DNA of 64,000 nucleotides. Source: a phage. Of the stretch, positions 13,535 to 20,561 are shown piece after piece. The position numbers and the translations under genes were made by a program. The DNA is taken from sequence record PZ445524.1. The stretch is one strand, 5' to 3'. Each line of letters starts with the position of its first letter. Position 1 is the stretch's first letter. The notes under the pieces were generated by a model that was not told the DNA's origin, ran no database searches, and worked only from the letters and a program-made list of their open reading frames with translations.

Positions 13535-13777
13535 TTATTCCTTAATTCCTAGTACTTGTTTAAAAGTCTCGTCGTAATCAAGACTTTGGCCCGTTTGTTC
13601 TTTATGTTTGTATATAATATCACTTACTTCTGATAGCATATTTTTATATGAACGAGTTAAAGCTGATTTAAGCACGCTGTATCTATCAGGAAATTTACCG
13701 TGTTCATTATAATAAGCTATTGCTAATTCACGGACTGCCTTTTCGGCAGTCTCCATATATTCTTTACGCTTGGTCAT
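13535..13777 (-). CDS. hypothetical protein (nrdC.1 position)
   Basis: 80 aa from internal Met [13 protein letters not shown]. Confidence 0.45.
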
Positions 13778-14060
13778 TTTCTTCTCGGTCAAATCGGTGT
13801 TTACAATGGCGACATTTATAACGAAGATTATTAGTCTGCCAATGGACCAATTGCACCTGTTCAGTTCCACATTCAGGGCAATTAGGAACGTATTTAGAAG
13901 CCCTTTCGCGACGTTTAACCATAGCCATAATGGCATCCCATGCTGGAGGTTTAAAATCTAAATCGTCAGTAACTAGCAGTCCTTTATCAAACCCAGCGCA
14001 TGGAGTCCATTCAGGAAAATCTGAAGCTTCGGCAATATCTTCTAATAGACGCTTTTTCAT
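13764..14060 (-). CDS. zinc-ribbon protein (nrdC.2 position)
   Basis: 98 aa; CPECG ... CRHCKH four-Cys zinc ribbon. Confidence 0.5.
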
Positions 14061-14983
14061 TTCAATACCTCAATAGCATTACGTAAACCATTTGCTTTTG
14101 CATTAAGAGCTTTTAACAATTTGGTGTGTTCTGCAATTTGGGCTTCAACTTCAATCAAACGAGCATTGAGATATTCGCGTTCTTCTTTCATAGTATCATT
14201 CCCATGATTGGATTTTGGTGTAGGTTTAAATTCACTAGGGTCCTTTAATTTAATAACAAATTTAGTTTCAAACAGTGAAAGACCATAATTCATATTATCA
14301 TCAAAGGATTTGACTACATCCATATCAGATAATAACACGCGTAAATTATAAGCCAAAGAACTAATAGTTTCATTGTGTTTATTAGCTTCGCGTGGTTTCA
14401 TATACGGAAGATTTTTATATATCTCGTGCGGAGCACAAATGATAATTGACAATTCAAATTGCCCATTCTGGGACGATGGAGTGAATTTAGCCGTAACCCA
14501 GTCTTTTACATTTACATTAATAGTACGGTTATCACCATGACAAAACAGTCTACGAGAATGCTTAAAAAGCATATTCACATTATTATTAAATTCGTGTGAA
14601 AATTCACTAGCAAATTTTTCTTTACTATCTTTAGAAAACCATTCTTCTAAATAAGTTCTTTTCACGTCGTTAATAATATTAAATGTAACAACACTAGCAT
14701 TTGATACATTAGTCTCAATGTAGCTTGGATACATAAATTTTTTAACATTATTAACAGCTATCACAGAAGATAGTAATCGGGAACGTTTGAACCACTCGAG
14801 CAAAGAACCAAGAGAATGTGAATATGCATTTTGTGTATCTTTACAAATATGGTTTTCCCATCCAATATAGTCTAAAAAATCACGAAGAATATTATTGATT
14901 ACTGCTCTGTGTCCTATCTGATAATTACGATGTTTAGTAATAAGACTGTCAAAATAATCAATATAATGTTTACGAGTTTTCAT
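14057..14983 (-). CDS. hypothetical protein with C-terminal coiled coil (family member 1)
   Basis: 308 aa; starts MKTR; C-terminal heptad region ...[33 protein letters not shown]. Confidence 0.55.
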   Translation of the reverse strand: MKTRKHYIDYFDSLITKHRNYQIGHRAVINNILRDFLDYIGWENHICKDTQNAYSHSLGSLLEWFKRSRLLSSVIAVNNVKKFMYPSYIETNVSNASVVTFNIINDVKRTYLEEWFSKDSKEKFASEFSHEFNNNVNMLFKHSRRLFCHGDNRTINVNVKDWVTAKFTPSSQNGQFELSIIICAPHEIYKNLPYMKPREANKHNETISSLAYNLRVLLSDMDVVKSFDDNMNYGLSLFETKFVIKLKDPSEFKPTPKSNHGNDTMKEEREYLNARLIEVEAQIAEHTKLLKALNAKANGLRNAIEVLK

Positions 14984-15035
14984 GTTCTTCTCACTTGGTT
15001 AATGATTTATACTCCGAGCCATCCTTGGCTTTAAA

Positions 15036-16037
15036 TTACTTAATTAACTGTAAAGCTTGTTCCAGACGATCAAGACGATTAACAGATTCTTCCCAAATCC
15101 TTTTAGCCTGCTCATATTCTTTCTGCGCTTTATTAGAAATTTCTAGAACTTCTTTATAAGCTTTTTCTAGTGCAATAACTTCTGGACGAATTTCTATCGG
15201 TTCAGGTGAATCATCAAGACATTCCATTAGTTCCTCAAGGGTAGTTTCTTCTTTAGGAGTATTCACAATTTCATCACATTTTTGTTGATAAATTTCTTTA
15301 TCAGTAGGTGAGTACGCGCACTTTACTTCACGAAGACTAATTACAATTTTATATCCTTCCCAACCGCATATATTCTTAAAAGGATAAGTATGAATATTTT
15401 CTACTGTTTCCATACAAAGTAATGCGGTCTCTAATTGACGAGTTATAGTGCTAGCAATTGAGAAAAATTTATTAATGTTCTTTTGGTTAGTTTCTGGTGT
15501 AAAAAATCCATAATTCACAAAAATAGATACTTTATTTTTATCAAGTTCATATTCTTTTATGATAATCATATCAGAAGCCAAAGGATGAATTTGACGATAA
15601 TCGCCATAACATAATTTAGAAGCTGATTTTAGAATCTGTCCTTTGAAAAGTCTGAAATTACTAATCCAACGACGAGTAAAAATATTCTCAGGGTCTTCTT
15701 TATTATTAAGATGATAAGAATTAACATCACCGAACCAATTATATCCTACTACATCTTTGGTTCGTTTAATTTCTTTCCCAAAATTACCAAGAATATCCCG
15801 ATTAACCAAATATGAAAGAAGACGAGACTCTTTAAAGGTTTTCTTGATAAGATCTTTATCTACACGGCTAGAAATTTTACGAATTTCATGAATAAATTTA
15901 GTAGAAGAAACAATACCTGCATCAACACTATTGAGCCATTGATTGATAATAGAAAGAACGCTATTTTGGCCAAACATCGGTATAGCTTTATCATCAATAA
16001 CGCTATTGAATGATTTGATATATTCGTTACGAGTCAT
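15036..16037 (-). CDS. hypothetical protein with C-terminal coiled coil (family member 2)
   Basis: Start set at internal ATG 16035-16037 with SD GGAG and promoter directly upstream; C-terminal coiled coil. Confidence 0.55.
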   Translation of the reverse strand: MTRNEYIKSFNSVIDDKAIPMFGQNSVLSIINQWLNSVDAGIVSSTKFIHEIRKISSRVDKDLIKKTFKESRLLSYLVNRDILGNFGKEIKRTKDVVGYNWFGDVNSYHLNNKEDPENIFTRRWISNFRLFKGQILKSASKLCYGDYRQIHPLASDMIIIKEYELDKNKVSIFVNYGFFTPETNQKNINKFFSIASTITRQLETALLCMETVENIHTYPFKNICGWEGYKIVISLREVKCAYSPTDKEIYQQKCDEIVNTPKEETTLEELMECLDDSPEPIEIRPEVIALEKAYKEVLEISNKAQKEYEQAKRIWEESVNRLDRLEQALQLIK

Positions 16038-16063
16038 ATTAATCTCCTCAGTAGAAAGTAAGA

Positions 16064-16094
16064 ACATTATACCACATCCTTGTGGCAAAGTAAA
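16064..16094 (-). promoter_or_regulatory. T4-type early promoter
   Basis: minus GTTTAC ... TGGTATAATG with about 17 bp spacer. Confidence 0.55.
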
Positions 16095-17120
16095 CTAGTT
16101 CAGTGCATTTAGTGCATTGTTCAGTTTAGAACGTTGCTTTGTCAGATTTTGAACCCTTGACTGAGCTTGTTTTAACACCTTTTCAGCTTCTAGCACTTCA
16201 TTGGTCGCTTTAACGAGTTCAGCATCTACTGCTTTAAGAGACTTCTCAATCGCATCTGCATGCCATTTTTCAACAGGTTTAAGACTCGGATTTTCAACAG
16301 GAAGAAAATTCACTTTATTGAATTTCCATGCATCTTTATTACCTGAACTATACATCCAAAATTTAGGATCGTTTGATAAGTAATTGGATAAATTTAAATT
16401 TAAGTTATCTTGCACTTCCTGCTTTTTCTCTTGCGGGACTTCGTCCTTTCTCAAAAATTCATATTTAAATGAAACGATCATATCAAGTTCATATGATGTT
16501 GTATCTAACTTAAATCGTTCAAAACGAGGTAAAATCTTAGATTGAACAGCAGCAACAACATCCATATACTTAAATGCTTCTGTCAACTGTGATTTAAGGC
16601 ATTCACAAATTGAAAGAGAATTTTTTGTATTAGGTTTAAAGCTAATTCGTGCAGTTCTATTATTTTCTTTTAACGGTCTTACTTCCATCTGAAGAGTATA
16701 ACCATCAAATTTCAGATTCTTTAAGTTAATATCAGAGCCTTTTAATCGACTAGCAGTAGACAAAATTTGCTTTAATTGTCTACGGAATAGAGCAATAAAT
16801 CTCCATTCAAGACGATAATGATTTGGATTGAAAAATCCAGATGATAAATCGACCTTACTTTGACCAACGCCTTGAACAAATAGAGGATTTTTATAATCAA
16901 TAGTTTTACAGAAATCGGTGAGCTGCTCACGAGCAGTCATTTGTGTAATATACCCCGCTTTACTAAAATGACGTAACCATTCACTGCTATTCATATATTT
17001 AAAGTGAATATCACGATTAACTTTATCAGGGTCTAAATTATTTTGGCACAAAAATGTCATAACATCACGAGTATAGCTGGCATTACGAACCATATCTTCA
17101 ATTTGAGAACGAGTTTTCAT
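16095..17120 (-). CDS. hypothetical protein with C-terminal coiled coil (family member 3)
   Basis: 341 aa; starts MKTR; C-terminal coiled coil. Confidence 0.55.
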   Translation of the reverse strand: MKTRSQIEDMVRNASYTRDVMTFLCQNNLDPDKVNRDIHFKYMNSSEWLRHFSKAGYITQMTAREQLTDFCKTIDYKNPLFVQGVGQSKVDLSSGFFNPNHYRLEWRFIALFRRQLKQILSTASRLKGSDINLKNLKFDGYTLQMEVRPLKENNRTARISFKPNTKNSLSICECLKSQLTEAFKYMDVVAAVQSKILPRFERFKLDTTSYELDMIVSFKYEFLRKDEVPQEKKQEVQDNLNLNLSNYLSNDPKFWMYSSGNKDAWKFNKVNFLPVENPSLKPVEKWHADAIEKSLKAVDAELVKATNEVLEAEKVLKQAQSRVQNLTKQRSKLNNALNALN

Positions 17121-17128
17121 GGTGTTCC

Positions 17129-18037
17129 TTAAGATTTAAGTAAATCAACAATTTTAATTAACTTTTCACGCTCAGATTTAGCTTTACTACTCAATCCAGA
17201 TAGTCTGAAAATTTCATCATCATATTGTTGAATAGAAATATTCAGCTCTTCAATCTGTTTATTAAAATAATCAATTTGTTCAGAATGTTTTTCGTTACTA
17301 CGAAATGGTACAAGTTTTGTAGGCAATTTAGTTGAACTGGATTCATTCGGGCGATAAATTAAAATGCAATTTGAACCAATCGGGCATTTAGCACCAGATG
17401 AATATTCTAACGTTCCAGCTTCTTTTAAAACTTCAAAAGCTAAACAGAGATGATGCCCCATATTAACATAATCTGTAGAGCGAGCTCTGATGTAATAATC
17501 ATCTCCACGAGTACTAAATTTAAAGCATTTAAGGTCTTCTGTATTATTGGTCTTAAAAATCATTTGTTTATCTAGACCTTTAGCTAATCGAGCACCTAAT
17601 GCTAATAATCGTCGTTGATTTTCCCACAAATCTGCGATCATTTGGTCGAATGATAATTTCGGCATTAGTCGGCCATAAAGGTCATATCCTTTATTATAAT
17701 TACGAAGGATTTCACTCGCGTTAATACGAGACAATGCTCCAATTTTATTAAGGGCTTTCATAATGCGATTAGATAAACTCATTCCAGACCCGTTTGTTCG
17801 CTGTAAATGTTTATCTAATCCAAACCCAATATCAACTTTAAATTTATCTAAAATTTCTGCATGAACATCTTTATCAATAACATTCAAATCCAAAGTTGGG
17901 TTAAATCTATGAAAAAATTTATCTGGCTCTCCACGACGAAGTACAGTCCATTCATTCAATTTTTTATTAACTAAAGATTTAATTACTGCATTGACATTAT
18001 TAATTACTACTGACATATTTTCCTCACTCAATTTCAA
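17129..18037 (-). CDS. hypothetical protein with C-terminal coiled coil (family member 4)
   Basis: 302 aa; C-terminal coiled coil. Confidence 0.55.
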   Translation of the reverse strand: MKLSEENMSVVINNVNAVIKSLVNKKLNEWTVLRRGEPDKFFHRFNPTLDLNVIDKDVHAEILDKFKVDIGFGLDKHLQRTNGSGMSLSNRIMKALNKIGALSRINASEILRNYNKGYDLYGRLMPKLSFDQMIADLWENQRRLLALGARLAKGLDKQMIFKTNNTEDLKCFKFSTRGDDYYIRARSTDYVNMGHHLCLAFEVLKEAGTLEYSSGAKCPIGSNCILIYRPNESSSTKLPTKLVPFRSNEKHSEQIDYFNKQIEELNISIQQYDDEIFRLSGLSSKAKSEREKLIKIVDLLKS

Positions 18038-18486: not shown

Positions 18487-19014
18487 TTATGCGAGTACCG
18501 TCTTTAACCGTTCTTCAAACTTCCGAAGAGTGTTCTGGCGTTCAGCTCTTTGCTTTTTGTAAGTTTCAATACGCTCTGAAATGAGAGTGTATCGTTCATT
18601 TACTGATTCTTTCATAAAATCAGGAATTTCACGAGAAGCTTTAATCTCATCAAATTTATCAATAACAGCTTGCTCTTCAGCAATTAAGTTATCATACATC
18701 AAAATATCTTTCTTGATGAACTCAATATCTTCTTGAGTTACACGAGATAATTTAGATGCTTTATCCTTTTTGTACTGTTCATTAGTATCACGAGACCAGT
18801 GTAATGTACGATTTTTATTCGTATTTTTGTAAATTTCTACAATACCAATCTCATCGATAATAACGATCCAATTCCAACGAGATTTGTAAATTTGCCCTCC
18901 GTCAACCGTGATTTCACCTCCGATTGAGATGTCATTAAAGAACTTGCTTTGTGCTTCAGATTTAAATTTACCATCGTTGTAATTTACCAGGTTGAAAATA
19001 TCTTTAGCGTTCAT
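18487..19014 (-). CDS. hypothetical protein
   Basis: 175 aa; SD GGAGGAAC and early promoter upstream. Confidence 0.55.
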   Translation of the reverse strand: MNAKDIFNLVNYNDGKFKSEAQSKFFNDISIGGEITVDGGQIYKSRWNWIVIIDEIGIVEIYKNTNKNRTLHWSRDTNEQYKKDKASKLSRVTQEDIEFIKKDILMYDNLIAEEQAVIDKFDEIKASREIPDFMKESVNERYTLISERIETYKKQRAERQNTLRKFEERLKTVLA

Positions 19015-19478: not shown

Positions 19479-20459
19479 TTATTTCAGAAGAGTAACCTCA
19501 GCGATTTCTTCCCAACCGTTTTTGTCGGTCATAATAAAGTCAGCAAGATAAAGAGCAGTACGCAGTGAAACATTGCGTAAACGGTTAACATTGACTTTCA
19601 TCCATGATAATGCTTTATAAGTTTCTTCATCAGAAAGACCGCGCTTTTGCATCATGTCAGTTGAAAGAATAACATCTTCAACCCTGACCATAATTTCTTC
19701 ATTAGTGTGAACACCCAAATCCAAATAAACTGAGCGGGACACTAATGCTTGTAAATGTGGAGCAAGTTTAGTACCACGGTCTAATTCGCGGTCAATGTCA
19801 ACGTTTGTGATAAAAACAATCGTTCCTTTAAATTCAAACTCACGCTCAATGCCTTTTTCTTCTAAATAAGAAGATGCAGTGCTCCAGCAGACTTTACGGG
19901 TCTCTCCAGTGTCCAGAGCAGCTTTCAGAAGATTAAGAATGTCCATATCAGAGAAAACATCCACATCATCAATCAAAAGGACAGAATTCTCTTCACGATT
20001 ATTCCAGAGCTGTTCATAAAGACCGATACCAGAGATTTTACCGTTAATGCTTTTATATTCAATGTATCCAATATCATTTGCTTTATTTAAAGCTTTATCT
20101 AAAGAATACGTTTTACCAATACCTGCTGCTCCCGAGATAATTAATGAACGAATATTTCCGTTAATAATACCATTCGTCATCATTCCCATAACATTAAATC
20201 TTTTATTAATGCGGGTTTTCATATCTTCATATGATTCTTTAACTTCTTCAACTTTTACACCATCATATGAAATGTCTGATTTGTAAACCCAAACACCACG
20301 ACGTTTACCGTCAATTTCAACAAAAACTTTACCATCTCCTTGTGCATCTACTGGTGCATTATCTGGGAACCATTCGCCTAAGAGCTCAAAAGTTCCAGAG
20401 ATTTCTTTACCGAAGTAGATACCCTTATTGATAGTTACAGTTTTCATTTTATTCTCCAA
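19479..20459 (-). CDS. AAA+/P-loop ATPase
   Basis: 326 aa; Walker A GAAGIGKT; Walker B VLLIDDVD; sensor-like FITN. Confidence 0.65.
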   Translation of the reverse strand: MENKMKTVTINKGIYFGKEISGTFELLGEWFPDNAPVDAQGDGKVFVEIDGKRRGVWVYKSDISYDGVKVEEVKESYEDMKTRINKRFNVMGMMTNGIINGNIRSLIISGAAGIGKTYSLDKALNKANDIGYIEYKSINGKISGIGLYEQLWNNREENSVLLIDDVDVFSDMDILNLLKAALDTGETRKVCWSTASSYLEEKGIEREFEFKGTIVFITNVDIDRELDRGTKLAPHLQALVSRSVYLDLGVHTNEEIMVRVEDVILSTDMMQKRGLSDEETYKALSWMKVNVNRLRNVSLRTALYLADFIMTDKNGWEEIAEVTLLK

Positions 20460-20511: not shown

Positions 20512-20561
20512 AGTTTTGTGAAAAATTTTTGAAATAAAAAAGGGAGCCCGAAGGCTCCCTA

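Follow-up and report, generated by a model that had tools for sequence, protein, structure and literature searches.

Four adjacent genes of a T4-like phage, including the ortholog of the anti-Dsr1 gene nrdC.5, as probable members of one diverged family of putative counter-defense proteins

The closest described counterpart of the proteins treated here is NrdC.5 of phage T4 (DUF7235, PF23882). A T4 clone with compensatory deletions no longer plated on strain ECOR17, deletion of dsr1 from the host restored plating, and plasmid-borne dsr1 shielded MG1655 from the T4 deletion mutant (Srikant, Guegler & Laub, eLife 2022, PMC9391042). T4 nrdC.5 provided in trans restored plating of the mutant on Dsr1-carrying cells, and nrdC.5 alone was enough to overcome Dsr1, a SIR2-domain defense (PMC9391042). 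The same work describes nrdC.5 as an early gene and reports that the region is lost in viable evolved T4 clones; no mechanism or structure of NrdC.5 has been published. DSAD1 of SPbeta-like phages is reported to be an accessory protein that inhibits the SIR2 defense DSR2 by direct binding. The likeness to DSAD1 is one of analogy (an accessory protein that neutralizes a defense-associated sirtuin), drawn without sequence or fold comparison, and DSAD1 belongs to another phage group and acts on DSR2 rather than Dsr1. Here, we analyze a 64,000-nucleotide stretch of phage DNA (record PZ445524.1, hereafter the window), the source of which is a Tequatrovirus, i.e. a T4-like phage. By sequence identity and gene order, four of its consecutive open reading frames (ORFs) are the orthologs of T4 nrdC.3, nrdC.4, nrdC.5 and nrdC.6. 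We read them as tandem duplicates, ancient and much diverged, of a single gene that T4-like phages carry between nrdC and nrdC.10, a reading that places NrdC.5 in a superfamily of four members.

The 3.98-kilobase stretch that holds the array matched 507 phage records, nearly all of them Tequatrovirus, with a top identity of 97%. Every gene of the region lies on the minus strand, in the order found in T4 (NC_000866): endonuclease VII, pin, nrdC and nrdC.1 to nrdC.10. The array is flanked as in T4, with endonuclease VII, pin, nrdC, nrdC.1 and nrdC.2 on one side and nrdC.7 to nrdC.10 on the other. Both identity and the gene order from nrdC to nrdC.10 assign each of the four ORFs to its T4 counterpart:

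14057..14983, minus strand: nrdC.3 ortholog, 308 amino acids, 90% identity to T4 NrdC.3, match to phrog_1435 (1.9e-101)
15036..16037, minus strand: nrdC.4 ortholog, 333 amino acids, 98% identity to T4 NrdC.4, match to phrog_1435 (2.3e-168)
16095..17120, minus strand: nrdC.5 ortholog, 341 amino acids, 96.5% identity to T4 NrdC.5, match to Pfam DUF7235 (2.5e-120)
17129..18016, minus strand: nrdC.6 ortholog, 295 amino acids, 97.7% identity to T4 NrdC.6 over 259 amino acids

The ORF at 16095-17120 is therefore the ortholog of a known anti-Dsr1 gene, with the same neighbors as in T4. Its product scored 402 bits against DUF7235 (cut-off 30), residues 1-341 lying on model positions 1-307. The ATG of nrdC.4 is preceded by a GAGGAG ribosome-binding site, and all nrdC.4 homologs carry the precomputed label PF26897 ('Phage_T4_Y04OP'). 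The nrdC.6 product of the window matched phrog_2257 (1.1e-150); the precomputed label PF26899 is found on 109 of 109 nrdC.6 homologs. Three of the four ORFs stand as they were first delimited in a preliminary description of the window, and the fourth keeps its frame but not its start, which had been placed at TTG 18037. We take ATG 18016 as the true start of nrdC.6 because a GAGG ribosome-binding site lies 6-7 nucleotides upstream of it and because the protein then begins MSVVINN, as annotated in T4 and found in other phages. The TTG start is an artefact of ORF extension.

Since pairwise BLASTP among the four window proteins was nearly silent, the sole match being nrdC.3 to nrdC.4 at E 0.019, profiles were needed. 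They were built with homologs from six other phages, and reversed-sequence controls in hhalign mostly gave 1% or less. The paralogs share only 15-25% pairwise identity. NrdC.3 and NrdC.4 both match phrog_1435 over their full length and are linked via intermediates at E 1e-7 to 1e-9; hhalign joined them with 98% probability (E 2e-13). NrdC.3 was joined to NrdC.5 with 90% probability (E 1.5e-6) over 228 collinear columns, and the score for NrdC.4 and NrdC.5 varied with the alignment used (22-75%). A metagenomic protein of 315 amino acids, P0238, matched all three over the full length, NrdC.5 with 97% (E 3e-11), NrdC.4 with 93% (E 4.5e-7) and NrdC.3 with 86% (E 5e-6). From these hhalign links and the bridge formed by P0238, we conclude that NrdC.3, NrdC.4 and NrdC.5 are homologous by sequence. 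An M-(K)-T-R N-terminus is invariant in their lineages across genera; the similar N-termini proposed earlier for all four proteins are thus confirmed for these three but not for NrdC.6, whose lineage has no such motif and whose presumed MKLS start was produced by the misplaced start codon. At the DNA level, a search of the whole array revealed no long repeats between copies, indicating that the duplications are old and that neither recent duplication nor gene conversion has occurred. The sole meaningful repeat was the start context ATGAAAACTCGT, common to nrdC.3 and nrdC.5.

The four proteins also have similar C-termini. We compared their last 42 residues with random 42-mers from window ORFs of at least 150 amino acids. 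Each tail keeps a single unbroken heptad register over at least five heptads, with 10-11 of 12 a/d positions hydrophobic and 0-1 proline or glycine residues, and the tails rank in the top 0.08-2.2% of the random segments. Such tails in four adjacent genes are far beyond chance, and the heptad-repeat ends noticed at first sight are borne out for every member:

14060..14194, minus strand: C-terminal heptad helix of nrdC.3, last 45 amino acids, 10/12 a/d positions hydrophobic, top 0.4%
15039..15185, minus strand: C-terminal heptad helix of nrdC.4, residues 285-333, one predicted helix (285-332), 10/12 a/d positions hydrophobic, ends RLEQALQLIK
16098..16232, minus strand: C-terminal heptad helix of nrdC.5, last 45 amino acids, 11/12 a/d positions hydrophobic, top 0.08%, ends KLNNALNALN
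17132..17284, minus strand: C-terminal helices of nrdC.6, residues 245-295, predicted helices 245-271 and 277-294, 10/12 a/d positions hydrophobic, ends KLIKIVDLLKS

In AlphaFold models, the nrdC.4 tail forms one helix of 48 residues and that of nrdC.6 two helices. A motif at the end of the tail, L-x-x-A-(L/I)-x-x-L-K, is common to the four proteins and recognizable in relatives from Acinetobacter phages. Comparison between genera shows the C-terminal coil to be the segment of NrdC.4, NrdC.5 and NrdC.6 that has changed least, and within the NrdC.6 family this tail reaches 80% identity. The nearby nrdC.8 ortholog (18487-19014, 175 amino acids) likewise has a charged amphipathic helix at its C-terminus (ERIETYKKQRAERQNTLRKFEERLKTVLA). 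It was ruled out as a fifth member, the hhalign probability against the four paralogs being 0.5% or less.

For NrdC.6, the connection to the other proteins comes from the predicted fold. The AlphaFold model of NrdC.4 (predicted local distance difference test score, pLDDT, 82.3; predicted template modeling score, pTM, 0.67) consists of a helical bundle (residues 3-84), three strands (88-110), a helix (119-142), a hairpin (158-174), a second helix (185-208) and a second hairpin (212-235), followed by a low-confidence linker and the tail helix. The model of NrdC.6 (pLDDT 75.6, pTM 0.64) comprises a helical N-terminal part, helix 123-146, hairpin 165-178, helix 186-199, hairpin 204-221, a linker and the two tail helices. 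The predicted cores lie at:

15333..15776, minus strand: central alpha/beta sandwich of nrdC.4, residues 88-235
17354..17650, minus strand: helix-hairpin-helix-hairpin core of nrdC.6, residues 123-221 (helix 123-146, strands 165-170 and 173-178, helix 186-199, strands 204-211 and 214-221)

The order of elements in the two models is the same and their positions are nearly identical. When the NrdC.4 model was compared with BFVD by Foldseek, it matched NrdC.3 at E 2.8e-8, NrdC.6 of phage JS10 at E 9.9e-6 (335 columns; template modeling (TM) scores 0.43/0.49) and NrdC.6 of phage Sf25 at E 1.5e-4. The NrdC.4 and NrdC.6 models, moreover, each matched the same proteins of about 300-335 amino acids from distant T4-like phages, namely E5EPQ6 of Acj9, E5E4A2 of Acj61 and A0A2Z4QAR2 of Klebsiella phage Mineola. 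The similarity hence extends beyond the coiled coil. We consider it very likely that all four proteins share ancestry, as the idea of an expanded and diverged paralogous family had implied. Their common build would begin with a bundle of helices at the N-terminus, continue with the helix-hairpin-helix-hairpin alpha/beta sandwich in the center and a flexible linker of low confidence, and end in a heptad helix of about 45 residues.

The family is restricted to phages and has a narrow distribution. All clusters returned by word-indexed searches (63, 57 and 109) came from T-even coliphages, and a HMMER profile of NrdC.4, NrdC.3 and NrdC.5 retrieved only 18 proteins from 1.84 billion representatives. 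Neither NrdC.6 nor the Acinetobacter proteins were retrieved in this exhaustive search, so that sequence alone cannot unite the family. The number of copies at the syntenic locus varies from one to four among T4-like genomes, a comparison that the preliminary description had called for:

Tequatrovirus: 4 copies (nrdC.3, nrdC.4, nrdC.5, nrdC.6)
Gaprivervirus VR7 and Dhakavirus NC-G, IME08 and LQ5: 3 copies (nrdC.3 absent)
Mosigvirus SF: 3 copies (nrdC.6-like, nrdC.5-like, nrdC.3-like; nrdC.4 absent)
Acinetobacter phage Acj61: 2 copies in tandem (p120, p121)
Acinetobacter phage Acj9: 1 copy (p122)

The Acinetobacter copies occupy the interval between nrdC or gene 49 and nrdC.10. The genome of Acj9 also carries adjacent genes for nicotinamide phosphoribosyltransferase and ribose-phosphate pyrophosphokinase (L008:4691-7345), the kind of nicotinamide adenine dinucleotide (NAD+) salvage pair reported to counter NAD+-depleting defenses.

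Within Tequatrovirus, nrdC.3 is dimorphic: 140 records are at least 90% identical to the window type, which is the minority, and 357 fall at 60-80%. Comparison of the two alleles (window 14057-14983 and phage pSs-1, L006:7001-7930) revealed 86-100% identity over the first ~75 and last ~30 residues and 26-70% in the center, the pattern of a cassette replacement. Within the genus, variation of NrdC.4 and NrdC.5 is concentrated at residues ~20-60 and near the linker. Rearranged forms also occur. In P0119, residues ~135-272 of NrdC.5 are fused to residues ~147-309 of NrdC.3 with deletion of nrdC.4; P0121, the NrdC.6 of Shigella phage Sf25 (378 amino acids), contains an internal tandem duplication; and P0240 (173 amino acids, from an 803-base-pair metagenome contig) joins an unrelated N-terminal domain of ~120 amino acids to the last ~50 residues of NrdC.5. 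Allelic variation, chimeras and duplication together constitute arms-race-like variation. In the T4 reference, nrdC.6 (NC_000866, L001:10067-10894) has a deletion of one nucleotide relative to window 17129-18016, at about nucleotide 778 of the gene, and the protein ends EELIFLFNNMMMKFSDYLD after 275 amino acids, with loss of the C-terminal coil conserved in other phages. This deletion is either a laboratory-strain pseudogene mutation or an old sequencing error.

Searches of Pfam, NCBIfam, PADLOC and PDB gave no solved relative or informative family match for any of the four proteins: PDB searches with single proteins and with profiles and NCBIfam and PADLOC searches returned nothing significant, and weak Pfam matches (MerR-DNA-bind, BipA_C, Cas6b_C, CENP-F and others) were discarded as far below the cut-offs. 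Almost no polar residue is invariant across NrdC.3, NrdC.4 and NrdC.5. Taken together, the lack of significant database matches and of invariant polar residues gives no sign of an enzyme. Promoter-like sequences were found in the region, all of them matches to consensus only. They precede nrdC.4, nrdC.8 and nrdC.10, the first being:

16066..16094, minus strand: sigma-70 type promoter-like site between nrdC.5 and nrdC.4, TTTACT-17-TATAAT with upstream TG, 10/12 matches

These putative promoters fit early expression, and nrdC.5 is described as an early gene.

On balance, we favor the view that the array encodes non-enzymatic, oligomeric counter-defense binders, each paralog with a different host immune target. 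The proteins would be produced early in infection, would form oligomers via the C-terminal coiled coil and would, as non-enzymatic binders, neutralize host anti-phage immune proteins; with one target per paralog, the array would widen the range of strains that can be infected. Direct binding as the mode of action, oligomerization through the coil and a counter-defense role of NrdC.3, NrdC.4 and NrdC.6 are inferred. The suspicion of a defense-related function that was voiced at the outset is borne out by the published phenotype of nrdC.5 and may extend to the other three by paralogy. Several observations weigh against this view. A phenotype has been reported for nrdC.5 only. Within Tequatrovirus, the core of NrdC.5 hardly varies, unlike what would be expected of a surface under strong diversifying selection, and its fold is deduced from homology. 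The coil-less NrdC.6 of T4 implies that this copy is dispensable on laboratory hosts. Finally, NrdC.6 gave no convincing sequence link to the other three (hhalign 12-35%), its probable homology to them resting on predicted structures with TM scores of ~0.43-0.49.

The strongest competing explanation accepts the four genes as paralogs with nrdC.5 as the sole counter-defense factor, the others acting early in host takeover or regulation without connection to defense, for example by binding non-immune host or phage proteins. It would account for a phenotype of nrdC.5 alone and for the tolerance of T4 to a truncated nrdC.6, and the low identity among the paralogs leaves ample room for functional divergence. 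Nevertheless, the genes belong to an accessory region that is not essential, only phages have the family, with its 18 representatives among 1.84 billion, and copy-number variation, allelic replacement and chimeras are typical of arms-race genes. We therefore regard this explanation as rather doubtful.

A second explanation separates nrdC.6 from the other three genes and ascribes the similarity in size, position and C-terminal coil to convergence or module capture. Profile comparison of the four proteins, which had been proposed as a check of their kinship, linked three of them (90-98%, with P0238 at 86-97%) and left NrdC.6 at no more than 35%; Pfam and the PHROGs keep NrdC.6 as a separate family, and P0240 demonstrates that the coil can join an unrelated domain. 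Against a separate origin stand the helix-hairpin-helix-hairpin-linker-coil succession at near-identical positions, the full-length Foldseek matches of the NrdC.4 model to two NrdC.6 models and the convergence of both models on the same third-party proteins, and even the weak hhalign match of NrdC.6 falls on the equivalent helix. Hence we consider an independent origin of nrdC.6 unlikely and retain common ancestry of the four genes.

The predicted core may resemble the fold of tail terminators, and two further readings start from this possible resemblance. A 2026 preprint reports recognition of the phage major capsid protein by the TPR sensor of Dsr1 and of tail terminators by further bacterial sensors (PMC12803255), which makes a decoy mechanism conceivable, if unproven. 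The central domain would then be an exapted tail-terminator fold, duplicated into the early region, which engages host sensors of conserved phage structural folds either as a decoy or as a competing ligand; as oligomeric decoys, the paralogs would each occupy a different sensor (e.g. TPR sensors of the Dsr1 or Avs type) before the real structural proteins appear. If this were true, the array would amount to a modular 'anti-sensor' battery, and its size, from one to four copies, would follow the immune repertoire found across the host range. Compared with tail terminators of the lambda gpU type, the NrdC proteins are at most 12% identical, lack a sequence-family match, are early and non-structural and have additional N-terminal helical and C-terminal coiled-coil parts; we judge the decoy reading to be improbable. 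That the proteins are themselves structural or morphogenetic (neck or tail accessory) relatives of tail terminators is, despite the possible resemblance in fold, very improbable, as the genes lie outside any late module, in the early accessory region nrdC-mobD and close to sigma-70-like promoters, nrdC.5 is early and works from a plasmid in the host, the region is dispensable, and no tail-terminator family was matched in Pfam or PHROG.

The genes as such, the phenotype of nrdC.5 and the union of nrdC.3 with nrdC.4 in Pfam and PHROGs are already known. Databases keep nrdC.3 to nrdC.6 as three separate families; PF26897 and phrog_1435 cover nrdC.3 and nrdC.4 and exclude nrdC.5 and nrdC.6, and the wider link takes profile-profile and structure comparison. 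This explains why databases that make the threefold split have missed it. In the papers and databases searched, we found no published record of the union of the four with proteins of other T4-like genera, of the common domain plan or of the possible tail-terminator-like core, so the superfamily link and the fold appear to be new. The array itself would belong to the phage counter-defense accessory proteins and does not represent a new type of system. Phage counter-defense proteins are actively sought, and for most T4 accessory genes a function has yet to be assigned. With nrdC.5 as the only characterized member, paralogy yields three concrete counter-defense candidates, nrdC.3, nrdC.4 and nrdC.6, and further relatives in T4-like phages of Acinetobacter, Klebsiella, Serratia and Erwinia could be tested against defense-system libraries. 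The common build suggests a common mode of action, a coiled-coil oligomer carrying a variable binding body, and the structure of one member could reveal it.

Some observations concern the neighboring genes. In many GenBank records, the orthologs of nrdC.3 to nrdC.11 are labeled 'thioredoxin'. None of these proteins gave a thioredoxin match, and we rejected the label, which was apparently propagated from the nrdC locus names and is not evidence of identity. The nrdC.2 ortholog (13764-14060, 98 amino acids) encodes a small protein of the zinc-ribbon type, in which two CxxC pairs occur and for which Pfam gave many weak zinc-ribbon matches. Its start codon overlaps the stop codon of nrdC.3 in an ATGA junction (14057-14060), which suggests translational coupling. 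The nrdC.10 ortholog (19479-20459) encodes a P-loop nucleoside triphosphatase domain whose similarity to AAA_14, AAA_22 and nSTAND3 is weak and falls short of the cut-offs (E 6e-5 to 5e-4), and nrdC.10 adjoins the array even in the Acinetobacter phages. The T4 annotation suggests that its real start is an ATG giving MKTVTINK and not TTG 20459. Directly upstream of its promoter-like site, a perfect 8-base-pair GC-rich hairpin (AGGGAGCC-TTCG-GGCTCCCT, 20541-20560) is followed by a run of T on the minus strand, and from its sequence it looks like an intrinsic terminator between nrdC.11 and nrdC.10.

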